64,000 nucleotides of DNA from Elusimicrobiota bacterium. GTDB lineage: Bacteria; Elusimicrobiota; Elusimicrobia; Elusimicrobiales; UBA9959. Shown here in pieces: positions 6,481 through 63,851 of this stretch (position 1 is the stretch's first letter; each line of letters opens with the position of its first letter). A program made the position numbers and the translations under genes. Location: assembly GCA_012517285.1 (NCBI GenBank), contig JAAYVG010000035.1, forward strand, positions 7,647-71,646, written 5' to 3'. The notes under the pieces are model-generated. The model was not told where the DNA came from. It saw only the letters and a program-made list of their open reading frames with translations, and ran no database searches.

Positions 6481-7380
6481 ATGAATTTTGATATTTACAG
6501 CATAGTGCTTATACTTCTTGGAATACTTGGTGCTTTTTCTTTCTTTGTTTTTATTCAGAGGTTTTTTTCTCCGGCAAAGGTTGAGGAAACGGCTGTTGCA
6601 AGTGTGGCTGATATGACTCAGAAGGAGATATCTCCTTTTGATAGACTTGATCCATCAAAAAGTTTTCTTGATAAGATAGACTATGTGCTGGCCAAAAATA
6701 TGGGATTTGGCAAAAGGATTGAAAGGCTCTATCTACTTCTTGGAAAACCTGATAAGACTGATCCACTTAAACTCCTTCATATAAAAGAAGGACTTGCCGC
6801 GGGCTTACCTGTTTTTATATTTTTGCTCTCAGGATCATTTATAATAGCATTTCTTTTCATACCTATAGGTTTTGTTCTTCCTGATGTTCTGCTTGACTTA
6901 AGGATCAAAAAAAGACAGGATGATATATTGAGAAATTTTCCTCAGTTTGTTGATTTAGCAGCTCTGATGATAGAATCAGGTCTTGATTACATAACGGCAT
7001 TTGATAGAATTGTTAAGGTTTCACCTGTTCAGACAGAGTTAGAAAAAGAGGTTGGCAAGATGATAGGGGAGATACAGTTTGGATATGCAAGAACAGATGC
7101 CTTAAGAAGGTTGGCTGACAGAACAGGGCTTCAGGAGGTCAGATCATTTGCTGGGCTTGTTATACAGAGTGATGAGCTCGGAACAAGCCTTGTTGATCTT
7201 TTAAGGAATTTCAGTGCTGATATGAGGTTCAGGAGATTGAATCGTGCTGAAAAGCTTGCCGCTCAGGCATCAACAAAGATGTTGATACCACTGTTCATCT
7301 TCATATTCCCTGTTGTCTTTATACTGATGCTTGCTCCTATGATAACTGATCTGATACGCGGTGGCGGGGCTCCTTTTTAG
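6481..7380 (+). CDS. tadC: TadC-like T2SS-F platform protein
   Basis: TM helices flank a T2SSF-type cytoplasmic domain (FPQFVDLAALMIESGLDYITAF..., GEIQFGYARTDALRRLADR). It is adjacent to tadB. Confidence 0.8.
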   Translation: MNFDIYSIVLILLGILGAFSFFVFIQRFFSPAKVEETAVASVADMTQKEISPFDRLDPSKSFLDKIDYVLAKNMGFGKRIERLYLLLGKPDKTDPLKLLHIKEGLAAGLPVFIFLLSGSFIIAFLFIPIGFVLPDVLLDLRIKKRQDDILRNFPQFVDLAALMIESGLDYITAFDRIVKVSPVQTELEKEVGKMIGEIQFGYARTDALRRLADRTGLQEVRSFAGLVIQSDELGTSLVDLLRNFSADMRFRRLNRAEKLAAQASTKMLIPLFIFIFPVVFILMLAPMITDLIRGGGAPF

Positions 7381-10232: not shown

Positions 10233-12915
10233 ACTTACTGGTTTGATTTGAGGTGGATTTGTTTTCACCATCATCAACTTTATCCTTGCCACAGCATTTC
10301 TTATACTTTTTGCCACTTCCGCATGGACATGGATCATTCCTTCCAACCTTTAACTTTGCTGGTTTTGATGATGATTGTGTAGTGTTTTGATAGTTTCCAT
10401 TTTTCTGATTAGTATTTTGTTTTATATCTTCTTTTTTTTCTGTTTTTTTATCATCGCTGGTTACAACCGGCCTTATTATCCTTGGTGGGAGCTGTATCCT
10501 GAAGAGGTATTCAACAGTGTTGTTTCTTATTCTGTCAAGCATCTTTTCAAAAAGTGAATATGATTCCTTCTGATACTCTATCAGCGGATCCTTCTGACCG
10601 TATGCTCTCAAGACAACACCCTTTCTTAAGTAATCAAGCTCATAAAGATGGTTTTTCCAGTTGTGATCTATTATCTGTAACAGAAGAATTCTTTCAAGCT
10701 CCTTAAAGTCAACACCTCTTTCAGTAAAATCTTTTTCTCTCTGAGCATAAGCCTGTTTAACCCTTGATATCACATCTTCTCTCAAAGAATCGTAGTTTGT
10801 TTCATCTAAAATATCTACTGTAAATCCAAAGTTTCTTTTAAGCTGAATATTTAGGTTTTCTATCTTCCACGTGGATGGGTGCATTTCCGGATTAATATGC
10901 TCCATAAGCATAGAATCAACCATCTCCTCTATCATCTTAAGCACTCTATCTGATACATCTGTTGCATCAAGAACAGTATCCCTGAGCTCATATATTGCCA
11001 TCCTCTGCTTGTTCATAACATTATCATAGTCAAGAACCTGTTTCCTTATGTCAAAGTTCATTGCTTCAACCCTTTTTTGAGCATTTTCTATCTGTTTTGT
11101 AATTATCTTTGACTCAATGACCTCACCCTCTTTCATACCCAATCTTTCCATTATTGCGGATATTCTATCAGATCCAAAGAGCCTCATCAGCTCATCCTCA
11201 AGCGATACATAAAACACTGATGCTCCTGGATCACCTTGCCTTGCACATCTACCCCTGAGCTGGTTATCTATTCGTCTTGACTCATGCCTTTCAGTTCCTA
11301 TAACGCAAAGCCCACCAACACTGACAACATATTCCTGTTCTTTTTCATCAGGTGGATTTCCGCCTAGCACAATATCCGTTCCTCTTCCTGCCATATTTGT
11401 TGCAATTGTTACAGCTCCTCTTTTTCCTGCCTGAGCTATTATCTGGGCTTCCATCTCATGATATTTAGCATTTAATACTTGATGTGGTATTCCCTTCTTT
11501 CTGAGCATCTGTGATAATGTTTCTGATTTTTCAATAGATCTTGTTCCAACAAGAAGAGGCTGTCCCTTCTTCCATCTTTCCTCTATTTCGTTGACTATAG
11601 AATTAAACTTTTCTTTTTCAGTTCTGTAAATTCTATCTGGAAAATCACGTCTTATACATTTTTTATTTGGTGGTATTTCAACAACATCTAACTTGTATAT
11701 TTCCCAGAACTCACCTGCCTCAGTCATTGCTGTTCCCGTCATACCTGATATCTTATTGTATAGCTTGAAAAAATTCTGAAATGTTATGGTTGCAAGCGTC
11801 TGGTTCTCTTCCTTTATCTGAAGATGTTCCTTTGCCTCTATAGCCTGATGAAGGCCATCGGACCATCTTCTTCCCGGCATGAGTCTTCCAGTGAACTCAT
11901 CAACTATAACAATCTCTCCATCCTTTACAACATAATGAACATCCTTTTTAAAAAGAAAGTGTGCCCTTATAGCCTGAGTTATGTGATGCGACCACTCGGC
12001 GTTGATATCATTATAAATATTATCAACCTTCAAAAGCCTTTCAGCCTTTTCAACCCCTTCTTCCGTGAGAACAACACTGTGATTTTTTTCATCTATAATA
12101 GCATCAAAACCCTTACCCACATCAACCCCTTCTTTTTTTGCTAAAAACTCTTCCTTTTCCGTTATAAACTTACACTTTAAAAATGGTATCACTCTATCAA
12201 CAATATAATATTTGTCAGTGGATTGCTCTGAAGGTCCTGAAATTATAAGCGGAGTCCTTGCCTCATCTATGAGTATTGAATCCACCTCATCAATTATTGC
12301 ATAGTTAAGTCCTCTTAAAACCTTTTCTTCTTTTGACATAACCATGTTATCTCTTAGATAATCAAATCCTATTTCATTGTTTGTTACATAGGTTATATCA
12401 CACTCATACATCTTTTTTCTTTCAGCATTGTCCATATCATGCTGAACATATCCAACAGTCAAACCTAAAAACTCATGAACAGGAGCCATCCAGTTTCTAT
12501 CCCTTTTAGCGAGATAATCGTTAACTGTAACTATATGAACGCCCTTACCTGTCAAAGCATTAAGGTATGCTGGAAGTGTTGCAACAAGTGTTTTTCCTTC
12601 ACCAGTTTTCATCTCAGCAATCTTTCCTGAATTTAGTACTATACCACCTATAAGCTGAACATCATAAGGCCTAAGACCTATAGTCCTTTTTGATGCTTCT
12701 CTCACAGCAGCGTATGCATATGGAAGTATATCTTCAAGCGTTTTTCCGTTGGAAAGCATGTTTTTAAATTCATCTGTCTTTTTTTTGAGTTCTTCATTGC
12801 TAAGGTGAGAATATTCCTCATCAAGAGAATTTATTTGATCAATAAGCGGCATCATCTTTTTAATATCACGCTCGCTTTTGGTCCCAAATATTGAATCTAT
12901 AAAGTTTTTAAGCAT
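10231..12915 (-). CDS. secA: Preprotein translocase ATPase SecA
   Basis: It spans 894 aa. Recognised motifs are MKTGEGKTLVATLPAYLNAL, DEVDSILIDEARTPLIISG, TNMAGRGTDI, and the C-terminal SEC-C zinc motif [19 protein letters not shown]. Confidence 0.97.
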   Translation of the reverse strand: MLKNFIDSIFGTKSERDIKKMMPLIDQINSLDEEYSHLSNEELKKKTDEFKNMLSNGKTLEDILPYAYAAVREASKRTIGLRPYDVQLIGGIVLNSGKIAEMKTGEGKTLVATLPAYLNALTGKGVHIVTVNDYLAKRDRNWMAPVHEFLGLTVGYVQHDMDNAERKKMYECDITYVTNNEIGFDYLRDNMVMSKEEKVLRGLNYAIIDEVDSILIDEARTPLIISGPSEQSTDKYYIVDRVIPFLKCKFITEKEEFLAKKEGVDVGKGFDAIIDEKNHSVVLTEEGVEKAERLLKVDNIYNDINAEWSHHITQAIRAHFLFKKDVHYVVKDGEIVIVDEFTGRLMPGRRWSDGLHQAIEAKEHLQIKEENQTLATITFQNFFKLYNKISGMTGTAMTEAGEFWEIYKLDVVEIPPNKKCIRRDFPDRIYRTEKEKFNSIVNEIEERWKKGQPLLVGTRSIEKSETLSQMLRKKGIPHQVLNAKYHEMEAQIIAQAGKRGAVTIATNMAGRGTDIVLGGNPPDEKEQEYVVSVGGLCVIGTERHESRRIDNQLRGRCARQGDPGASVFYVSLEDELMRLFGSDRISAIMERLGMKEGEVIESKIITKQIENAQKRVEAMNFDIRKQVLDYDNVMNKQRMAIYELRDTVLDATDVSDRVLKMIEEMVDSMLMEHINPEMHPSTWKIENLNIQLKRNFGFTVDILDETNYDSLREDVISRVKQAYAQREKDFTERGVDFKELERILLLQIIDHNWKNHLYELDYLRKGVVLRAYGQKDPLIEYQKESYSLFEKMLDRIRNNTVEYLFRIQLPPRIIRPVVTSDDKKTEKKEDIKQNTNQKNGNYQNTTQSSSKPAKLKVGRNDPCPCGSGKKYKKCCGKDKVDDGENKSTSNQTSK

Positions 12916-14569: not shown

Positions 14570-14745
14570 TCGCAAATAGGGGCCACCGAAGAAGTTATCT
14601 GGTCATTTAAAAACCAAAAGTAACCGCGTAGGTTACTTTTGGTTAGCAACAAAATAATATTAAAATATAATCATAAATTTTCTCATATCTGAAGTAACCT
14701 ACGCGGTTACTTCGGGTTTTGAACGGCAATGTATAAAATTGTGGG
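14570..14745. repeat. Twin-hairpin intergenic element, copy 1
   Basis: Hairpins CCAAAAGTAACC-GCGTA-GGTTACTTTTGG (14614-14642) and GAAGTAACC-TACGC-GGTTACTTC (14691-14713). About 100 nt match the inverted copy at 42.06-42.16 kb. The element starts with a TIR-like GGGGCCACCGAAGAAGT. Confidence 0.8.
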
Positions 14746-15411: not shown

Positions 15412-17154
15412 ATGGCAATTAAAGTGCTTGATAGAGAAACCGCTTCAAAGATAGCGGCCGGTGAGGTCATAGAAAGCCCTGTGTCGGTTATAAAGGAGCT
15501 CGTTGAAAACTCCATTGATGCGGGTGCTACATCTATTTCTGTTACCGTTGAAAAAGCTGGGAAAAAGCTCATAGCTGTAAGCGATAATGGCTCGGGGATG
15601 AGCGGTGATGACCTAAAACTTTCAATAGAGAGATATGCTACAAGCAAGATTGGTTCAATAAATGATATCTTAGGACTTTCAAGCTACGGATTTCGTGGGG
15701 AGGCACTATTCTCAATATTTTGTGTCTCAAAAATAAGGATTTCATCTTACAATGGGGTTGGTGAAAATGGATACACACTTGAGGCTCAGGGTGGAGATTT
15801 TAATTCCATAAACATATCACCATCATCGCCTGTTAAAGGAACTACCGTTGAAGTAAGGGAACTTTTTTATAATACACCTGCAAGGTTTAAATTTTTAAAA
15901 AGCGATGCACATTTAAGAGGGCTTATAATAAAACTTTTTGAGGAGTTTGCTCTCATAAGGCCTGAGATAAGGTTCAAGCTTATAATGGATGGCAAGGAGA
16001 TATACAACTTTGGCGAGGAGAAGGGAAAAAGTTTTTTAAAGCGAGCAGCAGAGATCTTGGGGAAGGATATATCAAAGGGGTTGATTGAGTTTGATGAAAG
16101 ATTTGATAACCTTGCCCTTAGTGGTTTTATCTCAAGCACCTCAAATCTTATATCCTCAAAATCTTTTCAGTATGTCTATGTCAACAATAGGATTGTTGAT
16201 TCAAGGACTGTTTCAATGGCGGTTTACAAGGCATATGAGAATGTAAGGCTTTCAAAGCATCCTGTGTTTCTTTTTTCTATTGAGATTGATCCTGCTAAAA
16301 TAGATGTCAATGTTCATCCACAGAAGAAGGAGATAAAGTTTGATGATGAGAGTTTTATATTCAATGCTGTTTTAAGAACAATTGAAAAAAAATTAGAGAT
16401 AAAAGATCAATCACCGAGGATTGAAATCAAGGATAGCAATAATTTTAGCAGCTGGTTTGATCAGAGGGTTGAGGGTGTGTCTGAGAGCAGATCAAAAAAT
16501 TATTTTAGCCAAAATGATTTTATTAAAACGATGTATCAGGGTGAGAAAAAACCACTCTGGTATAACCCGCCGATAAGATTTGTCGGACAGGCATTTTCAA
16601 GCATACTCATATATCAGGCGGAGAAATCCATACTCCTTGTTGACCAGCATGCAGCTGCAGAGAGGATAAGCTTTGAAAGGTATGTGGATGAGTTTAATAG
16701 AAAAAGCATAGTCGTTCAGAAGCTTTTACTACCCGTTGATGTTGCAATTCCTCAGTCAAAGATATCAAATATAGTTGAGATGAAGGAGTGGCTTGGCACC
16801 GCCGGCTTTGAGATAAACCAGAACGGGCCATCGTCAATAGTGGTTTATTCTATGCCTCAGATTTTTGAGCTTTCACAGAATTTGCTTCGCGAGTTGTTCA
16901 TTTATTTATCAGAGGTTATTTTAAAACCTCAAAACATATCAAGCGAGCTTAAGAGGGATACGATAGCTATGGCTGCCTGCAAGAAATCAATAAAGTTTAA
17001 GGAAAAGCTTGATGAAAGATCAGCTATGCATCTTATAGAGGAGCTCAAGGACACAAAGGACTCGCTCCACTGCCCGCACGGAAGGCCTACCATTGTTGAG
17101 ATAACATCAGATGAGCTGGTTAGAAAATTTGGAAGATCTGCTGGCGCTGTATGA
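15412..17154 (+). CDS. mutL: DNA mismatch repair protein MutL
   Basis: The N-terminus IKVLDRETASKIAAGEVIESPVSVIKELVENSIDAGAT is a GHKL ATPase. The C-terminal dimerisation/endonuclease region contains DQHAAAERI. Confidence 0.95.
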   Translation: MAIKVLDRETASKIAAGEVIESPVSVIKELVENSIDAGATSISVTVEKAGKKLIAVSDNGSGMSGDDLKLSIERYATSKIGSINDILGLSSYGFRGEALFSIFCVSKIRISSYNGVGENGYTLEAQGGDFNSINISPSSPVKGTTVEVRELFYNTPARFKFLKSDAHLRGLIIKLFEEFALIRPEIRFKLIMDGKEIYNFGEEKGKSFLKRAAEILGKDISKGLIEFDERFDNLALSGFISSTSNLISSKSFQYVYVNNRIVDSRTVSMAVYKAYENVRLSKHPVFLFSIEIDPAKIDVNVHPQKKEIKFDDESFIFNAVLRTIEKKLEIKDQSPRIEIKDSNNFSSWFDQRVEGVSESRSKNYFSQNDFIKTMYQGEKKPLWYNPPIRFVGQAFSSILIYQAEKSILLVDQHAAAERISFERYVDEFNRKSIVVQKLLLPVDVAIPQSKISNIVEMKEWLGTAGFEINQNGPSSIVVYSMPQIFELSQNLLRELFIYLSEVILKPQNISSELKRDTIAMAACKKSIKFKEKLDERSAMHLIEELKDTKDSLHCPHGRPTIVEITSDELVRKFGRSAGAV

Positions 17155-42039: not shown

Positions 42040-42245
42040 ACAATTTTATACACTACAACCCGAAGTAACCTCGTAGGTTACTTCGGGTTTGGGTAAATTT
42101 ATGATTATATTTTAATATTATTTTGTTGCTAACCAAAAGTAAGCTACGAGGTTACTTTTGGTTCTTTCCTAAACAACTAATTTTATCTGTTTACATCTTG
42201 ATGATTAAATAACCAAACAACTAAACAACCAGATAACTAACATGC
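42040..42245. repeat. Twin-hairpin element copy 2 (inverted) plus the right copy of the island-bounding repeat
   Basis: Hairpins CCCGAAGTAACC-TCGTA-GGTTACTTCGGG (42059-42087) and AACCAAAAGTAAGC-TACGA-GGTTACTTTTGGTT (42131-42163). ATCTGTTTACATCTTGATGATT lies at 42185-42206. Confidence 0.8.
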
Positions 42246-55088: not shown

Positions 55089-55354
55089 AAAATGCTATTA
55101 GGGTGTTCCAGAGTATCCCCAAAAACATTTTATTATAGGATATTTTATAAAATCCTGAGGTTTTTTTACATCAAAAATTTAACTGCAAAAATTCTTCCCT
55201 GTTATACAATTTTTCTCCATTTATAAAAAAATTATTCATCACCGCTGTAAAAATTTATAATCAATTTCCAAGTTATAAAAAAAATTGTATAATTAAAAGT
55301 GAAGAGAGACGGTTGTGGTAGCTATAATATTAATATGGCTGATGAATAGTAATT

Positions 55355-55477
55355 ACTGAGGGTCAGGTCAGTGCCCAATACCTGTCTGCAGTAGGAAGTA
55401 GGCAGGGACGGAAATAAGGAATTACCTTAATTCTGTCTTCTGATTTCTGTCCTCTGACCGCTGACTTCTGTCTTATT
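55355..55477 (+). repeat. Heptad-periodic CAGA/TCTG hairpin leader element, copy upstream of buk
   Basis: TCTG or GCTG occurs at 55432, 55439, 55446, 55453, 55460 and 55467, an exact 7-nt phase. The 3' 57 nt differ at only 3 positions from 58302-58360. The element ends directly at GGAGG (55478-55482). Confidence 0.8.
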
Positions 55478-55486
55478 GGAGGCGTT

Positions 55487-56605
55487 ATGAGCAATTATGG
55501 AATACTTGTTATAAACCCCGGTTCTACAAGCGATGAGGTCAGTTTTTTTAAAGGAAGGAAGCTTGTATTTCATAAGGTTGTCAGATATGCTCAGGATGAT
55601 TTAAAGCCATTTGAAAATCAGAAGATAACTGCTCAGTTTGATATGAGAAAGAATATTGTTATGGAATCGCTTAAAGAAAATAATATAGATTTATCTGAAA
55701 TAAATGCAGTTATAGGAAGGGGTGGAATGTTAAAACCAATAGAAAGTGGTACATATGAGGTAACCGATTTAATGTTAGAAGATTTGAAGACTTGTAAATG
55801 GGGAGATCATGCATCAAACTTAGGTGGATTAATAGCAAGGAGCATAGCAGATGAGATAAAGGTTAAGGCATTCATTGCTGATCCTGTTGTGGTTGATGAA
55901 ATGGATTCTATAGCAAGATATTCTGGTATGCCTGAAAATCCGAGGACATCCATATTTCATGCTCTAAACCAAAAAAGAGTTGCAAGGCATGCTGCAAGAC
56001 AGTTGGGAAAACCGTATGAAGAATCAAATTTAATAGTTATGCATGGTGGCGGAGGAGTATCAATAGGTGCTCACAAGAATGGAAGGGTTGTTGATGTTAA
56101 CAATGCTCTTGATGGTGAGGGGCCATTCACTCCGCAGAGAAGTGGTGGAGTTCCTGCAGGTGGACTTGCAAAGATGTGTTTTTCAGGGAAATACACTTAT
56201 GATGAAATCAAGCTTAAGATAAAAGGTAAGGGTGGACTTGTGGCTTATTTAGGAACGAGCGATATTGTTGCTATAAAAAAATATATAAAAACTGGTGAGG
56301 TTTCATCAGGGCTTAAACCAGAATTAGCTACGAGGGAAAAAGCAAAGGAAATACTCCTTGCTATGGCGTACCAGATTTCAAAGGAGATAGCCTCTGCTGC
56401 TGCTGTTTTTGAGGGTAAGGTTGATGCTATAGTTTTAACTGGTGGCATAGTTTATGATGATGAGTATATAGTTCCTGAGATTAAAAAGAGGGTTGGTTGG
56501 ATTGCACCCGTGATAGTTTATCCGGGTGGTGATGAGATGACGGCTTTGATGGTTGCATGTGAAAGTGCTTTAAAAAATCCTAAAAAAATAAAGGTCTATA
56601 ATTAG
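55487..56605 (+). CDS. buk: Butyrate (branched-chain fatty acid) kinase
   Basis: ILVINPGSTSDEV is the ASKHA N-terminal motif. The length is ~372 aa and it is adjacent to ptb. Confidence 0.88.
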   Translation: MSNYGILVINPGSTSDEVSFFKGRKLVFHKVVRYAQDDLKPFENQKITAQFDMRKNIVMESLKENNIDLSEINAVIGRGGMLKPIESGTYEVTDLMLEDLKTCKWGDHASNLGGLIARSIADEIKVKAFIADPVVVDEMDSIARYSGMPENPRTSIFHALNQKRVARHAARQLGKPYEESNLIVMHGGGGVSIGAHKNGRVVDVNNALDGEGPFTPQRSGGVPAGGLAKMCFSGKYTYDEIKLKIKGKGGLVAYLGTSDIVAIKKYIKTGEVSSGLKPELATREKAKEILLAMAYQISKEIASAAAVFEGKVDAIVLTGGIVYDDEYIVPEIKKRVGWIAPVIVYPGGDEMTALMVACESALKNPKKIKVYN

Positions 56606-56610
56606 GAGAT

Positions 56611-56716
56611 GGAAAACAGATGTCAGAAGTCAGAGGCCAGAATGGGGAATAAAAGGAGTTAAACTCTAATTCTTGTTGATTTATGGCTTCTGTTTTCTGA
56701 GATCTGACTTCTCTGA
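56611..56716 (+). repeat. Heptad-periodic CAGA/TCTG hairpin element, diverged copy between buk and ptb
   Basis: CAGA at 56617, 56624, 56631 and 56638. TCTG at 56689, 56696 and 56703, then 56712. It ends ...CTGACTTCTCTGAATGGAGGG. Confidence 0.75.
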
Positions 56717-56728
56717 ATGGAGGGCATT

Positions 56729-57664
56729 ATGATAAAGTTCAAAGATTATGATGAGCTTGTGAATATGGTCAGTGGTATGTCAAACAGGGTTATTGTCCCA
56801 GGGGCAAATAACACAGAAGTTCTTGAAGCTATGAGGATGGGAATAGATAAAAAAATTATTTCTGGTGGAACACTTATAGGACCAGAAGCAGATGTTAAGA
56901 AGTATCTTGATACGGTTGGCATTGACAAAAAATTTTTTGAAATAATAAATGAAAATGATATTCCGAACATGGCAAACATTGCTGTTGAGCTTATAAGGGA
57001 TGGGAAGGGTGATTTCCTTGTAAAGGGACTTATTGATACAAAGTACTATATGAAGGCGATTTTGAGAAAGGATATAGGTGCTGTTAAGGAGGGAGGATTA
57101 ATATCACACTTTGTCCTCTTTAAGCTTGATAATTATAATAAGTTTTTTGCACTTACCGATGCTGCTGTTGTTATTGAACCAACCCTTGAACAGAAGGTTC
57201 AGATCATTAATAATGCAGTTAGTGTATTTAAACTTTTAGGTGTTGATAAGCCAAAAATATCAATCCTATGCCCTGTTGAAAAACCAAATCCAAAGATACC
57301 AAGTACTATGGATGCTGTTGAGCTTATAAAAATGAATAAAGAGGGTAAAATTCAAGACTGTGTAATAGAAGGTCCATACGATGTTTATATAACATTCTCA
57401 AAGAAGCTGGCTATGGAAAAGGGAATAAAGGATGCGGTTGTGCCGGGTGATGTGGATCTCGTTGTTCTTGACGATCTTGATGCAGCAAATGCGATGTATA
57501 AAACTCTTTCATTTTTTGGTGCAGGATGTAGATCGGCAACAATACTTGCAGGTGCAAACTTTCCTGTTATACTTCCTTCAAGGACTGATTCACCTATGAC
57601 AAAGCTTTACTCAATAGCACTTGCTTCATATATGAGAGAGATTAAAAAAGAAAAGGTTAAATGA
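56729..57664 (+). CDS. ptb: Phosphate butyryltransferase / phosphotransacylase
   Basis: The architecture is PTA_PTB-family and the gene is linked to buk. The start at 56729 puts GGAGGG (56719-56724) 4 nt upstream (the other copies have GGAGG at the same 4-nt distance). The ORF-track start is 56717. Confidence 0.85.
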   Translation: MIKFKDYDELVNMVSGMSNRVIVPGANNTEVLEAMRMGIDKKIISGGTLIGPEADVKKYLDTVGIDKKFFEIINENDIPNMANIAVELIRDGKGDFLVKGLIDTKYYMKAILRKDIGAVKEGGLISHFVLFKLDNYNKFFALTDAAVVIEPTLEQKVQIINNAVSVFKLLGVDKPKISILCPVEKPNPKIPSTMDAVELIKMNKEGKIQDCVIEGPYDVYITFSKKLAMEKGIKDAVVPGDVDLVVLDDLDAANAMYKTLSFFGAGCRSATILAGANFPVILPSRTDSPMTKLYSIALASYMREIKKEKVK

Positions 57665-58230
57665 AGAAGATAAAAAGAATAGCTTTTACTGGTGGGCCAT
57701 CAGCTGGAAAGACTTCTATAATTGAAATAATTCAAAGAAAATATCCGTCATATTTTATATCTGTCCCTGAAGCAGCATCGATACTTTACAGCGGAGGATT
57801 TCCGAGGATAAAGGGTGATGATGCTATGAAGCATATTCAAAGAGCTATATACTTTACAATAAAGGAGCTTGAGGATATGTATGAAAAGCTTTATCCTGAC
57901 AAGATTCAGCTCTGTGATAGGGGAACGCTTGACGGGATAGCATACTGGCCAAAGGACTCTGATGTTGATTTTATAAAATCTGTTGGAACGAATATGAATG
58001 ATGAACTTGATAGATATGATATTCTCATTCATCTAAAATCTCCATCATCCCCTGAGTTATATAAGTTGTCATCTACAAGAAATGAGGGACATAAATTAGC
58101 TGTTGAGCTCGATAGAAAAACTCAGGATGCATGGTCATTGCACAAGAGGCGATTTATAATAGATGATGAAAAAGACTTTTTGATAAAGGTTGAAAAGGCT
58201 ATTAAAATAGTTGAAGAACAGCTGAATTAG
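57661..58230 (+). CDS. Small P-loop NTPase (AAA_28 / NadR-kinase-like)
   Basis: IAFTGGPSAGKTS is the Walker A motif. The protein has ~189 aa. There is an ATGA overlap with ptb. Confidence 0.65.
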   Translation: MKKIKRIAFTGGPSAGKTSIIEIIQRKYPSYFISVPEAASILYSGGFPRIKGDDAMKHIQRAIYFTIKELEDMYEKLYPDKIQLCDRGTLDGIAYWPKDSDVDFIKSVGTNMNDELDRYDILIHLKSPSSPELYKLSSTRNEGHKLAVELDRKTQDAWSLHKRRFIIDDEKDFLIKVEKAIKIVEEQLN

Positions 58231-58232
58231 TG

Positions 58233-58352
58233 GTTAGTGATTAGTGATAAGAAAACAGATGACAGAAGTCAGATGTCAGAAATCAGATAAATAGGGAATT
58301 TCCTTAAATTCTGTCTTCTGATTTCTGTCCTCTGACCGCTGACATCTGTCTT
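58233..58352 (+). repeat. Heptad-periodic CAGA/TCTG hairpin leader element, best-preserved copy
   Basis: There are eight heptads at 58234-58289 (TTAGTGA TTAGTGA TAAGAAA ACAGATG ACAGAAG TCAGATG TCAGAAA TCAGATA) and six at 58310-58351 (TCTGTCT TCTGATT TCTGTCC TCTGACC GCTGACA TCTGTCT). GGAGG follows at 58356-58360. Confidence 0.85.
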
Positions 58353-58364
58353 AATGGAGGAAAT

Positions 58365-58823
58365 ATGAATTTTTTAAAAAAAATTATTGGCAAGTTATCA
58401 GGACAGGGCGAGAGTGACAGCTCTGTTAAAACTGTTCAGGAATCATTAAAAAAAGAAGAAGAAAAAAAACAGCCAGAGATTCAAAAGGCTCAAAAGAAAG
58501 AAAAAACAGATGATGAAATAATTGCTGAGCTCAACAGCATTGTTCCCGAAATATTGACTCAGGCAAAAACCCCTGAGATGAGAAAAACTATAATAAGTAT
58601 TTACAGGAAGATGACTGAGGATGGCATTGATATAAACAATGAAAATGAGGTTCGAAAGTGGGCTAATAAAAATGCTCATCTTTTCCAAAATGATGATGCT
58701 CCAAAGATTGAAACATACAAAAGGGAAAAGCCAAAGATTGGTAGAAATGATCCATGCCCTTGTGGTAGCGGGAAAAAATATAAAAAGTGCTGTGGTGCAA
58801 AAGAACAAGCTAATTCTAAATGA
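58365..58823 (+). CDS. SEC-C metal-binding-domain protein
   Basis: The C-terminal [19 protein letters not shown] is identical at protein level to the SecA tail motif in this window. The rest is charged, helical and unrecognised. Confidence 0.75.
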
Positions 58824-60370
58824 ATATCGAAATAAATCCAGAGTTTAAAAAAGCGTTTGACATAATGGAGTATTCAAGCGATAATCTATTTTTGACGGGA
58901 AGGGCAGGCACAGGAAAATCAACGCTGTTAAACTATTTTAAAGCAAAAACATCTAAGAAAATTGTTGTGCTTGCACCAACAGGGGTTGCTGCTTTAAATG
59001 TTGGTGGACAAACCATACACTCATTCTTTCGCTTCAAACCAGACATAACAGAGGATAAGATTGAAAAACTTTCAGAGAGAGCATTGAAGATATATAAACA
59101 GTTGGATACAATAGTTATAGATGAGATATCAATGGTAAGGGCTGATCTGTTGGACTATATAGATATATTCCTAAGAAGGAATTTAGGTAAGAACAGAGCC
59201 TTTGCAGGAATACAGATGATATTTATTGGAGACTTATATCAGCTTCCTCCGGTTGTTAAAAAGGATGAGAAAGGGATATTCAATGAAAGATATAAATCTC
59301 ACTATTTTTTTGATGCCGATGTCTTTAAAAAGTTGAATTTTAGGTTTGTTGAGCTTGAAAAGGTTTACAGACAGAGCGATGAATGTTTTATAAATATACT
59401 CAACAAAATACGAAATAATACCATAGCTGATGATGAACTCTGTCTGTTGAATAAAAGAGCTAATAAGAGACCTGATGATGAAAAATATATGATATATCTT
59501 ACCCCACTTAACAGAACTGCTAAAGAGATAAATGAAAAAAAATTGAATGAGCTTAACACTGATATCCATATCTTTAATGCTATAACTGCTGGTAATTTTA
59601 AAGAAACAGATTTCCCGACAGATGAGGAGTTGAGGTTGGCCTGCGGAGCTCAGGTGATGCTTCTAAACAATGACAGCCGTGGGAGATGGGTTAACGGTAC
59701 GATTGGTATAATAGTAGATTTTGATATTGATGATGATGGAGAAGATGTAGTAGTTATTGAAAAGGAAGACGGCGATATCGTTTCAGTAAAACCACATAAA
59801 TGGGAGATGTTTAGATACACATATGATGAGAAGAAAAAAAAGATAGGAACTGAGGCAACTGGTTCATTTACACAGTTTCCATTAAGGCTTGCGTGGGCAA
59901 TAACAATACATAAAAGTCAGGGTAAAACATTTGATAAGGTTTTAATAGATATCAGCTCGGGGGTATTTGCTCATGGTCAGACATATGTCGCTCTCTCTCG
60001 ATGCAGAAGCCTTGAAGGAATGTATTTAAAGTCTCCTGTGAAAAAACAGCATATAATAATGGACAGAAGAATAATAAATTTTCTTACAGAGTACCAGTAT
60101 GACATATCTGAGAAAGAGACTCCACTTAATATCAAAACAGATATAATCAATAACGCTATAAAGAACGAAACCGAGCTTAAAATAACATATCTTAAAACAA
60201 ACGATGAGAAATCAATAAGGATTATAAGACCGATAGCATTTGAAACCATAAGCTTTGGTGGTAAAAAAATATATGGGCTTAAAGCATTCTGCTATAAAAG
60301 AAATGAGGAAAGGTTTTTTAAAATAGAAAGAATACTTGAAATAAATGAGATAAAGAGTAAAATATTGTGA
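58820..60370 (+). CDS. pif1: PIF1/RecD-type SF1B helicase with a C-terminal WYL-like domain
   Basis: The helicase motifs are [46 protein letters not shown] and YVALSRCRS. The tail ...[10 protein letters not shown]...[24 protein letters not shown] looks like WYL. Confidence 0.85.
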
Positions 60371-60386
60371 TTGTCATCAAATTTTT

Positions 60387-61148
60387 ATGAGAAAATATAG
60401 TCAGGTTTTTTTAAAAAACAAGGAGATAGCTCAAAATATTGTAAAAGAGTTTGAAATCCTTGCACCAAAGGATAAAAAAATAATTGAGATAGGGCCGGGG
60501 AAGGGTATTTTAACAGAATTTCTTTTTAATGATTACAAAGAAAATTATACAGGGATTGAGATAGATCCTTATATGGTTGATATAATAAAAAATAAATTTA
60601 ACGGAATTAAAATAATAAACAAAGATTTCCTTGAAGCAGATATTGATTATGATACATCATATTTCATCGGAAATCTCCCCTATCATATATCAACAGCAAT
60701 AATAGAAAAACTTTTATCATATACACACTTTGACTCTGGAATTTTTATGCTTCAGAGAGAGGTATCAAAAAAATTGACATCATCATATGAAAGCTTTGAA
60801 TATGGCTATATATCAGCACTTGTTAATTTGGTAGCTGATACTGAATATCTCTTTGATGTCTCAAGAAATGATTTTTATCCTATTCCAGCGGTTGACTCAG
60901 GTGTTATATCTGTCAGAATAAAAAAGAATAGAATAACTGCTGATGAGTTTGAAAAATACAAAAGATTTATATCTGCAGCATTCATGCACAAGAGAAAGAC
61001 TTTAGTCAACTCTATTTCTCTAACAAGAAATATTAAAAAAGAAGAAGTTTTAAGTATATTAGAAAAAGAAAACATAAATAAAAATATAAGGGCTGAAGCT
61101 CTTAGCCCGCAGATTTTATACCGACTATCAACAATTATTAATATTTAA
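60387..61148 (+). CDS. rsmA: 16S rRNA (adenine1518/1519-N6)-dimethyltransferase
   Basis: YSQVFLKNKEIAQNIV, EIGPGKGILT and GNLPYHIST are present. Confidence 0.92.
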   Translation: MRKYSQVFLKNKEIAQNIVKEFEILAPKDKKIIEIGPGKGILTEFLFNDYKENYTGIEIDPYMVDIIKNKFNGIKIINKDFLEADIDYDTSYFIGNLPYHISTAIIEKLLSYTHFDSGIFMLQREVSKKLTSSYESFEYGYISALVNLVADTEYLFDVSRNDFYPIPAVDSGVISVRIKKNRITADEFEKYKRFISAAFMHKRKTLVNSISLTRNIKKEEVLSILEKENINKNIRAEALSPQILYRLSTIINI

Positions 61149-61288
61149 AACCATTTAAGGTTTATTTTGTATAATATGGTTAAGAATAGATAGCAATTTA
61201 ACAAGTTTGATGTATAGCAGATTAAAAGATTGGTTAGGTCAAAGATAGTGGATAGTAAAAGTAAAATTACTTACTACTAACCCCTGAC

Positions 61289-61354
61289 CCTGCCTACGCC
61301 AAGGCAGCTTCGGCAGGTTTACCTGCCAGCGCCTAAGTGGCTTCGGCAGGCAGG
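61289..61354 (+). repeat. Two tandem CCTGCC...GGCAGG hairpins in the leader of the M24 peptidase gene
   Basis: CCTGCC at 61289-61294 and 61322-61327. GGCAGG at 61312-61317 and 61345-61350. The same hairpin occurs inside element A at 2592-2622. Confidence 0.7.
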
Positions 61355-61370
61355 TTTAACTGGAGGAAAA

Positions 61371-62516: not shown

Positions 62517-63851
62517 ATGATGGGAAATAACATGCCCGAAAAGCAAACAAAACAGACAACAATGTTTGACACTTATGAGTTTCCATCTTACGAGGAGATA
62601 ATGGAGGCTTATGCTAAGGAATTCGCAAATTATATTCTTCCTAAAGGGGACACTATATTTGGTTTCTGGATGCAAACATTGGCTGATTTGGAATTTTTAG
62701 ATTTGGAATTACAAGGTTTAACTGACGAATATAAAATTGATCCAGTAAATAGAGTGGTTAATTTAAAAGGAAATGAGGACTATATAAGATTAAGAATTGC
62801 CCATCTTGAAAAAGTAAAAGGGAAAACAACCCTTTATACCGAATTAGTGGATAAATTTGGAGATACTAATGCATACGCTTTTCATAATCTTTATCCCTAC
62901 AAAGGCAAATTTTATCCCAGAGTTGTACGGACTTTAATCAATGCCTTCAAATTAAATAATGATTCACTACTTTTTGACCCTTTTAATGGCTCTGGAACTG
63001 CTACGCATGAGGCTTCTCTTATGGGTATTAAAAGCGTAGGGATAGATGTTACTCCAATGGGAATTGTTTTATCAGAATTAAAAAATGATTTACTTTTTAT
63101 TGATGACCAGAAATTGAGTTTTGCACCAAAGGAACTACAAGATATTTTGCAGGCAATAGAAAATAGAAGATGGGAACATTCCGACCCTTTAATTCATAAA
63201 TTAATGTTGGCAGTATATTTTGATACAGTTGACGCCTTTATAAGAACATCAAGGTATAATAGAAAAGGGAAAGTAGGTCTCTTTATTGAAAAGTTAAATT
63301 ACATAAGAGACTGCTATAAAAAGACTATGCAGATTAAAGAAAAATACGGTCTTAAATTTGAACATGCTCGCATCATAGAAGAGGACATCCTCGAACTTAA
63401 AAATATGAGTGAGTTGGAAGGAAAGTTTGATGCATGTATTACGAGTCCACCTTACTATTTTTCTATAGATTATGTGGGGAAAGATAAGATTGCTTATGAT
63501 TATTTAAATGCGGATATGAAAAAGATTGAATCTAAGTATCTGGGAATGAAAAATAGCGGGCATCCAAAAGGCAACTATGGCGGATTACCTCCAAGGGTTG
63601 CAATGTATTATGAAGACTTAAAGGAATCTATAAAAAATATCTTTTGGGCATTAAAGCCTGGCGGCAAACTTGCCATAATAATAGGGGATAGTACCGTTAG
63701 TGGGAAAAAGATACCAACGACCATGACAACCAAAAAGTTTTGTGAAGAAGCAGGATTTAAATTTGAAAAGTTGATATTCAATCCTCTTTTGGGTGCTCGC
63801 AATAGAGCAATAAGAGGAGAAAGTGTAATAATCTGTGAGAAGGGGAAATAA
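62517..63851 (+). CDS. DNA (N6-adenine or N4-cytosine) methyltransferase
   Basis: The SAM motif FDPFNGSGTATHEA lies ~145 aa before the catalytic CITSPPYY, followed by LKPGGKLAIIIGDS. SD AGGAG precedes the start. Confidence 0.8.
   Translation: MMGNNMPEKQTKQTTMFDTYEFPSYEEIMEAYAKEFANYILPKGDTIFGFWMQTLADLEFLDLELQGLTDEYKIDPVNRVVNLKGNEDYIRLRIAHLEKVKGKTTLYTELVDKFGDTNAYAFHNLYPYKGKFYPRVVRTLINAFKLNNDSLLFDPFNGSGTATHEASLMGIKSVGIDVTPMGIVLSELKNDLLFIDDQKLSFAPKELQDILQAIENRRWEHSDPLIHKLMLAVYFDTVDAFIRTSRYNRKGKVGLFIEKLNYIRDCYKKTMQIKEKYGLKFEHARIIEEDILELKNMSELEGKFDACITSPPYYFSIDYVGKDKIAYDYLNADMKKIESKYLGMKNSGHPKGNYGGLPPRVAMYYEDLKESIKNIFWALKPGGKLAIIIGDSTVSGKKIPTTMTTKKFCEEAGFKFEKLIFNPLLGARNRAIRGESVIICEKGK

Follow-up and report, generated by a model that had tools for sequence, protein, structure and literature searches.

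A strain-variable palindromic heptanucleotide repeat that ends beside ribosome-binding sites in an Elusimicrobiota operon

An inverted heptad array between two operon genes

The stretch of DNA analysed here (64,000 nucleotides from the genome of an Elusimicrobiota bacterium, hereafter the window) carries a plus-strand operon in which genes for butyrate kinase (buk), phosphate butyryltransferase (ptb), an AAA_28 ATPase and a SEC-C-motif protein follow one another, with pepP further downstream. The junction between the AAA_28 and SEC-C genes (58233-58367) is filled by a pair of inverted arrays of seven-nucleotide units, which we call element C. On the plus strand, three heptads (TTAGTGA, TTAGTGA and TAAGAAA, at 58234-58254, with units starting at 58234, 58241 and 58248) begin 3 nt past the TAG stop codon of the AAA_28 gene (58228-58230) and run in phase into a 5' arm of composition (NNNCAGA)x5 at 58252-58287, in which CAGA occurs at 58256, 58263, 58270, 58277 and 58284. 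A 22-nt loop (58288-58309) follows; it includes a mini-stem, AGGGAA/TTCCTT, and a loop sequence, AAGGAATTNCCTT, common to two further copies described below (A and E). The 3' arm, (TCTGNNN)x6 at 58310-58351, has TCTG at 58310, 58317, 58324, 58331 and 58345, with GCTG at 58338 as the core of its fifth unit. The arm is succeeded by TAAT, the Shine–Dalgarno (SD) motif GGAGG (58356-58360), AAAT and the ATG at 58365 that begins the SEC-C gene (58365-58823). The core is therefore present five times as CAGA and six times as T/GCTG, at a spacing of exactly 7 nt.

An earlier reading of this DNA, made from the letters alone (the sequence-only reading), had placed both arrays, the mini-stem in the loop, the GGAGG and the ATG, and every one of its coordinates is correct. 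It had also proposed a hairpin of ~35 bp, and this is borne out by the longest inverted repeat in the 64 kb, in which 58252-58287 pairs with 58317-58352 over 36 nt at 83% complementarity. The resulting interrupted hairpin stops 4 nt 5' of GGAGG. As RNA the element is predicted to fold at -45.6 kcal/mol (z = -4.2), and 0/200 shuffled sequences fold as well; it folds equally well on either strand (-42.7 vs -44.3). The pattern CAGAN3CAGAN3CAGA, with one mismatch at most, has 18 matches in the window against 0.32 expected, and all but one of them lie in three consecutive intergenic gaps of the one plus-strand operon. Tandem Repeats Finder (TRF) reports period 7 at 58226-58248 and detects both period 7 and period 14, which together would be a signature of slippage. 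Chance and assembly artefact were considered as origins and rejected on the strength of the shuffles and of five independent assemblies; artefact in particular is excluded because the arrays recur in contigs of the same species assembled independently (L001, L122, L123 and L294).

Read on the minus strand, the TTAGTGA units at 58226-58248 become TATCACT AATCACT AACCACT, resembling the WATCACW heptads that are bound by the omega protein of plasmid pSM19035. The likeness is probably a coincidence.

Variation among strains and comparison with related species

Element C is an unstable insertion, one of a family, that occupies the space between a stop codon and the next ribosome-binding site (RBS). 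Contigs of the species from other samples have gene flanks 98.7-99.8% identical to the window, and among these near-identical strains site C exists as four different alleles. The allele of the window measures 134 nt. That of L001 measures 95 nt, with two 5' units, seven 3' units, a weak fold (z -1.6) and a rewritten AAA_28 stop (AAT CAG TGA), whilst L122 and L123 share an allele of 256 nt built of other heptad families (GGTCAGT, GGTTATT and TTAGTTA) together with a 21-nt repeat, of which L294 holds a further variant. Site B, between buk and ptb, is 123 nt long in the window and in L001 and 75 nt long in L122, where it is made of CAGT/ACTG-type units. At site D, in the 5' untranslated region (UTR) of pepP, L001 and L122 carry a hairpin of the form (NNNCAGT)n...(ACTGNNN)5 and the window a GC-rich repeat, all site D alleles terminating in TTAACTGGAGGAAAAATG. 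Arm length ranges from 2 to 8 units among copies and alleles, and the 7-nt phase to which the sequence-only reading gave weight is kept in all copies.

Homologues of the phosphate butyryltransferase assign the organism to Elusimicrobiota/Elusimicrobiales. Five related species of Elusimicrobia, with 71-76% identity in this protein, share the gene order cupin-buk-ptb-AAA_28-SEC-C. Their genes at the same junctions are 7-15 nt apart or overlap, as in TAA-AAAGGAGGTTAATT-ATG. No array of CTG heptads was found in 91.5 kb from these five relatives, compared with seven clusters in 88 kb from the species studied here; in sequence of the latter, runs of four CTGs spaced 7 nt apart number 16, and there are none at spacings of 5, 6, 8 or 9. 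Because the alleles differ between strains and the relatives lack the arrays, the element is a lineage-specific, unstable insertion running from a stop codon to the next RBS. Its absence from the relatives, and its exchange between strains in which the genes are unchanged, also argue against a conserved regulator of this operon. A look-up of further strains by way of the PIF1 helicase returned no record.

One difference in gene content adjoins the variable sites. At 62517-63851 of the window, 3' of pepP, lies a gene for a 444-aa protein with a DNA methyltransferase domain (N6_N4_Mtase), where L001 and L122 have a LemA gene.

A dispersed family within the species

Element C has two sister copies, A and B, in the same operon, which also holds a fourth variable site, D; all are on the plus strand. 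Copy A (55357-55486) lies in the buk 5' UTR. Its 5' part is degenerate; its loop is AAGGAATTACCTT (55416-55428) and its 3' arm (TCTGNNN)x6 (55432-55473), with the SD motif GGAGG (55478-55482) ahead of the ATG at 55487. The fold is weak (z -2.1) owing to the degeneration of the 5' part, and the copy is identical in L001, L122 and L294. The 3' arms of copies A and C are near-identical over ~50 nt (a blast match of 93%). Copy B, between buk and ptb (56606-56728), has CAGA at 56617, 56624, 56631 and 56638 and TCTG at 56689, 56696 and 56703, ending with GGAGGG at 56718-56723; its hairpin is predicted at -42.7 kcal/mol (z -5.3), and the true ATG of ptb, whose called gene encodes 311 aa, lies at 56729. 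Site D (61149-61370) retains in the window a heptad remnant, GATAGTG GATAGTA, along with its GC-rich repeat.

The family is not confined to this operon. A metagenome-wide scan that used the 3' end plus SD motif as a probe (CTGACNTCTNTCTTANTGGAGG) returned only three contigs, all from one sample and with a G+C content matching this species; one is the same operon and the other two provide new sites. Site E, before a gene for an MTAP-like phosphorylase, is a full hairpin with the loop AAGGAATTTCCTT, as in copies A and C. Site F, located in a divergent promoter region, has only a 3' arm, and sites G (before an M20 peptidase gene) and H adjoin E in consecutive junctions. A purely local phenomenon is accordingly rejected, given copies on two further contigs of the species. 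Aligned on their ATG codons, A, three alleles of C, E, F and G have the same termination, ...TCTGAC(T/A)TCT(G/A/C)T(C/T)TTA(A/T/G)TGGAGG-N4-6-ATG. Copies within the species have in common their loop, their 3' arm and an end of the form ...CTTAATGGAGG-N4-6-ATG. The arrays finish 4-8 nt before a strong SD motif at at least seven sites in this species. Before an M48 peptidase gene, an array reaches the ATG directly, with no SD motif.

The copies are grouped. Sites A, B, C and D fall in successive junctions within 6 kb (55300-61370), with no copy in the window's first 55 kb, whilst G, E and H lie likewise within 3.3 kb of contig L295 (6134-9400). Such clustering in consecutive operon junctions suggests local spread.

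Other repeats keep company with the heptads. A GC-rich hairpin, CCCTGCCTACGCC..GGCTTCGGCAGGCAGG, is nested in heptad arrays, or adjoins them, at several loci in this species: at 61230-61350 of the window, where it takes the place at site D of the CAGT/ACTG hairpin of other strains, and in L293 (~6750-6790), L122 (~16590-16625) and L294 (~11210-11245). A second palindromic family, unrelated to the heptads, has two copies in the window (14607-14723 and 42057-42163), with arms that resemble AAGTAACCTACGCGGTTACTT and are each a GTAACC..GGTTAC hairpin in their own right. At the head of the operon (55089-55486), the cupin gene found there in all five related species is missing, although the promoter-like sequence TTGTATAAT is kept, and copy A occupies the space between it and buk.

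Distribution and polarity beyond the species

To set the element in a wider context, one genome per species was scanned for (TCTGN3)x5. Planctomycetota, Acidobacteriota, Verrucomicrobiota, Omnitrophota, Desulfobacterota, Bacteroidia, Cyanobacteria and others are represented among the matches listed, and many of the listed loci read, in order, stop codon, (NNNCAGA)n, loop, (TCTGNNN)n, SD motif and ATG. The position next to an SD motif, remarked upon by the sequence-only reading at the single locus, thus recurs in other phyla and in phage contigs as well as in the species itself. Among the matches listed there are 18 inverted pairs in the order CAGA then TCTG and none in the reverse order. Divergent promoter regions are avoided, accounting for 3/78 of the single arrays listed.

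Viral contigs were examined with two self-complementary patterns of equal chance expectation. CAGA followed by TCTG was found in 39 stretches (~50 sites) against 2 for the reverse order, and these two (L171 and L172) proved on inspection to be a single element in which two hairpins adjoin, both of them obeying the usual order. For the CAGT/ACTG core there are at least 120 stretches (at least 245 sites) against 0. Of 254 viral intergenic sites listed, 211 lie between co-directional genes as judged by crude open reading frame calls, at a median of 3-8 nt past the stop codon and 16-26 nt before the next start. Some viral contigs (L201, L250, L215, L179, L154 and L163) carry heptad hairpins at a density of roughly one per kb, and almost all of their co-directional junctions have one. 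One of these, L201 (IMGVR_UViG_3300025506_000008), is the early region of a Mu-like transposable phage, encoding a MuA-like transposase, a MuB-like protein, Gam and an endolysin; it has 11 hairpins in 11 kb.

Searches for known RNA and DNA elements

An Rfam search of the 64 kb found no family at gathering score; at permissive thresholds, the only sub-threshold hits were to miRNA-precursor models, which are generic hairpins. A curated, structured cis-regulatory RNA such as a riboswitch or leader was rejected on this ground and because the orthologous junctions in the five related species measure 7-15 nt or overlap. A miniature inverted-repeat transposable element (MITE) was also considered; copies share the loop and the 3' end, but the variable arm length argues against copies made by cut-and-paste. 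A scan for intrinsic terminators gave no terminator-like site at any copy (the stem of element C is followed by CUUAAUGGAGG), and therefore the elements are probably read through as part of the mRNA. In a search for internal promoters, promoter-like sites were no commoner than in shuffled sequence.

A repeat-based explanation and its rivals

We consider it slightly more likely than not that element C is one allele of a lineage-specific, hypermutable palindromic repeat of heptads, a CAG-to-CTG heptad hairpin akin to the short tandemly repeated repetitive (STRR) sequences. Slipped-strand mispairing would lengthen or shorten its arrays by 7 or 14 nt at a time, and complementarity between the arms may be kept at the level of DNA, through intrastrand template switching or gene conversion. 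Copying between neighbouring sites could have given rise to the near-identity of the 3' arms of A and C, for example, and the repeat may spread among sites by recombination or copying. Copies would persist only where the upstream reading frame and the downstream RBS stay intact, which would be why the elements span the interval from the stop codon to a few nucleotides before the SD motif. Co-transcribed with the operon, the element is predicted to fold in RNA as a ~36-bp interrupted hairpin that leaves the strong SD motif (TGGAGG) free. Any effect would likely be incidental: the downstream cistron might be uncoupled from the upstream one, and the stem could act as a substrate for a double-strand RNase or as a stabilising end. 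The hairpin would then be a consequence of the repeat and no conserved switch.

Several observations weigh against this explanation. The sequence TGGAGG lies 5' of only 4 of the 56 genes of the window, and these are precisely the four that bear an element (GGAGG at 55478-55482, 56718-56722, 58356-58360 and 61359-61363); by a simple motif search, 37 of the 56 have no SD motif. The five relatives have a strong AAGGAGG at the same junctions, however, and the SD motif is therefore at least partly ancestral. The 3' end ...TCTGACTTCTGTCTTAATGGAGG-N4-6-ATG is kept between unlinked loci. The arrangement 5'-(NNNCAGW)n-loop-(WCTGNNN)n-3' is followed with a near-absolute polarity, CAG arm first, and the same tendency is seen in single arrays: read in mRNA sense, CAG-type arrays among the matches listed are nearer the stop codon (24:8) and CTG-type arrays nearer the start (17:10), a difference with a Fisher p = 0.004 on crude gene calls. 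For copies A and B, moreover, the sense strand gives the better fold and has many G-U pairs, although composition (G>C) accounts for part of this preference. The link to TGGAGG, the conserved ending, the polarity and the sense-strand folding of A and B all fit selection or function at the level of mRNA or translation. Across the 211 viral hairpins no sense-strand advantage in pairing was seen, and because these large sets show none, the comparison of sense and antisense folding does not support selection at the RNA level.

The main rival, to which we give a rather low probability, is translation control. The pyrimidine-rich 3' arm, (UCUGNNN)n, would be a putative platform for single-strand RNA binders with a 7-nt footprint, such as cold-shock-domain proteins or S1, and binding, in competition with pairing to (NNNCAGA)n, would thereby determine how accessible the RBS is or how stable the mRNA. 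This would fit the adjacency to the RBS, the SD association (with TGGAGG exclusive to the element-bearing genes of the window, and arrays stopping just short of a strong SD motif at the seven or more sites mentioned above) and the polarity, including the position of single CTG-type arrays nearer to starts. The 3' arm also persists without a matching 5' arm in L001 and at site F, and the array of the M48 peptidase gene reaches its ATG without an SD motif, as TAACTGA repeats do (PMC4679880). Bacillus subtilis CspB binds one heptanucleotide, GTCTTTG/T (PMC1904285), and GTCTTCT is present in the arms of A and C, but this likeness to the consensus is partial and was noticed after the fact. Nor do the same junctions in five relatives have the element, and strains swap its alleles; no csp gene was found in ~120 kb of sequence from the species, a weak result given how small a share of the genome this is. 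A selected element for mRNA processing or stability is less probable again. Here RNase III would cleave the long duplex between cistrons, or the duplex would stop exonucleases, and the cistrons would thereby have separate half-lives in the manner of phage T7 RNase III sites or of stabilisers of the repetitive extragenic palindromic (REP) type. Stems of 21-36 bp inside operons without a terminator would suit such a role (for RNase III the relevant duplex is ~36 bp long and interrupted), as would the hairpins in almost every co-directional junction of some phage contigs (the Mu-like early region, L154 and L163), the 211 of 254 listed viral sites that are co-directional and the proposal of transcript stability or translational coupling in the STRR literature (PMC2670836). 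Against this, the L001 allele retains little of the hairpin and copy A forms a weak one, pairing has no sense-strand bias, and both the 7-nt unit and the polarity are left unexplained.

We regard two further rivals as very improbable. In one, the element would be a double-stranded array in which each 7-bp unit binds one dimer of a putative protein, the two arrays converging on the centre. The units have a conserved 4-nt core with a variable 3-nt spacer, the strict relative orientation of the two arrays is what directional protein binding predicts, and there are precedents both in omega/ParB of pSM19035, which recognises 7-bp heptads and needs at least 4 contiguous units (PMC9499535), and in the IHF/HU 'global regulator' sites proposed for the same motif in Geobacter (PMC2700814). 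The sites lie inside operons rather than at promoters, however, and divergent promoters are avoided (the 3/78 given above); unit sequences differ widely between copies and alleles (GGTCAGT, GGTTATT and TTAGTTA), and polarity tracks gene direction even in single arrays, which would not be expected of a purely DNA-level binder. In the other, slightly the less probable of the pair, the element would be a contingency locus at which changes in repeat number would work as a heritable switch for the expression level of the genes that follow (phase variation). The four alleles of site C among near-identical strains are consistent with this, and repeats in Moraxella 5' UTRs are described as tuning expression in work cited in PMC4679880. 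Yet the genes downstream are housekeeping ones (buk, ptb, pepP and MTAP) and not surface or virulence genes, and the alleles differ by wholesale replacement, beyond a change in unit number.

We put forward one broader possibility tentatively. CAG-to-CTG heptad hairpins might constitute one cross-phylum, phage-borne class with fixed rules set by dedicated, putative machinery, although we doubt it. Under such rules the CAG arm would always lie 5' and the CTG arm 3', each hairpin would run from a stop codon to a point shortly ahead of the next RBS, and single lineages would be invaded sporadically. The machinery might be a protein that covers 7 nt of mRNA or DNA, or else some specific activity in replication or repair. 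HutP (which recognises UAG every 7 nt), TRAP and the omega protein with its heptads were considered as binders of repeats, but nothing ties them to this organism.

Significance

A striking hairpin adjacent to an RBS proves here to be a strain-variable repeat insertion, and caution is warranted against reading it as a conserved regulator of the butyrate pathway. The locus itself is of modest interest; it is the general rules, polarity above all, that merit genome-wide study. Heptanucleotide repeats have been noticed for 35 years without a mechanism, and the regularities described above offer handles on one: the polarity, the placement from stop codon to RBS, the clustering in operons, the density in phages, the presence in one species but not in its relatives and the association with strong SD motifs in a genome mostly without SD sequences. 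As the distribution is all-or-none, a gene that correlates with it would be worth seeking. Were the cross-phylum class to be real, the abundance of heptanucleotide repeats in some bacteria would become a directly testable question.

Comparison with known repeat systems

REP sequences, bacterial interspersed mosaic elements (BIMEs) and MITEs of the Correia type are dispersed intergenic palindromes that are co-transcribed, are tolerated mainly at 3' ends and within operons and can alter mRNA stability. The present element is likewise a dispersed intergenic palindrome, but it is without fixed length or terminal inverted repeats of defined size, and its arms are microsatellites.

The likeness to STRR sequences is closer, and the sequence-only reading was right to draw it: tandem units of exactly 7 nt, many dispersed intergenic copies and a strain-variable or sporadic presence are found in both, which places the element among STRR-like heptanucleotide repeats in the broad sense. 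It is not an STRR in the strict sense of STRR1-3, for which the canonical units are CCCCAGT, TTGGTCA and CAACAGT; its units are CAGANNN/TCTGNNN, its host belongs to the phylum Elusimicrobiota, and its conserved loop and SD-adjacent ending mark it as a sequence family. In cyanobacteria, 7-bp STRR hairpins lie between hupS and hupL of Nostoc, Anabaena and Lyngbya, where a role in transcript stability or translational coupling has been proposed (PMC2670836). A CAGT-type array precedes an ACTG-type array in Nostoc (PMC2408588, Table 3), and a Nostoc preprint reports that deletion of heptamers affects reporters, with no partner identified. As in cyanobacteria, the hairpins described here can form between genes that are probably co-transcribed, and the L001 and L122 alleles use CAGT/ACTG units.

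Heptanucleotides are the commonest long simple sequence repeats in many genomes, with polymerase slippage as the proposed origin (Mrazek et al. 2007, as summarised in PMC4679880). The element shares with these its unit length and its lineage-sporadic occurrence; the category is purely statistical, however, and inverted architecture, polarity and placement at the RBS are not addressed by it. The TAACTGA repeats found just 5' of start codons in Beggiatoaceae, for which S1, Csp and CsrA have been suggested as binders (PMC4679880; MacGregor 2015), come nearer in position. Known from marine Beggiatoaceae, Cyanobacteria and Bacteroidetes, they have a CTGA core, run forward a few nucleotides from starts and are sporadic in phylogeny, all of which recalls the present element, and TAACTGA-like units are common in the 3' arms of the viral hairpins. 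Unlike it, most consist of a single direct array, 2-6 units long, which overlaps the RBS or stands in its place; inversion is rare, with one indirect repeat in 170 sets.

The nearest architecture is that of Geobacter class 3. In Geobacter metallireducens, arrays of about five tandem MTYCTGA heptads are paired on opposite strands; there are eight such pairs, one of which ends at CAAGGAGAGGTTCAT(G), and the authors read them, without experiments, as DNA sites for IHF/HU (Aklujkar 2009; PMC2700814, Fig. S5). Shared with element C are the pairing of heptads on opposite strands, the CAG-to-CTG order, the intra-operon location (in Geobacter, proB-proA and moaA-mosC), the stop of one arm at an SD motif and start codon and the core YCTG(A/T). 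The Geobacter centre is longer (~70-115 bp between arrays), and only one of the six window units fits MTYCTGA at 7/7 positions, the others fitting at 5-6/7; the likeness is one of kind, with homology unproven.

As a whole, the sequence-only reading is confirmed in its observation and partly supported in its interpretation. It had taken the motif, the inverted-array architecture and the SD-adjacent position to be undescribed, and this claim of novelty fails because the element matches described repeats (PMC2700814, PMC2670836 and PMC4679880), an outcome that the reading itself had named as counting against it. The kind is already on record, as STRR sequences, long simple sequence repeats, TAACTGA repeats and the Geobacter arrays, and the Elusimicrobiota are a new phylum for it.

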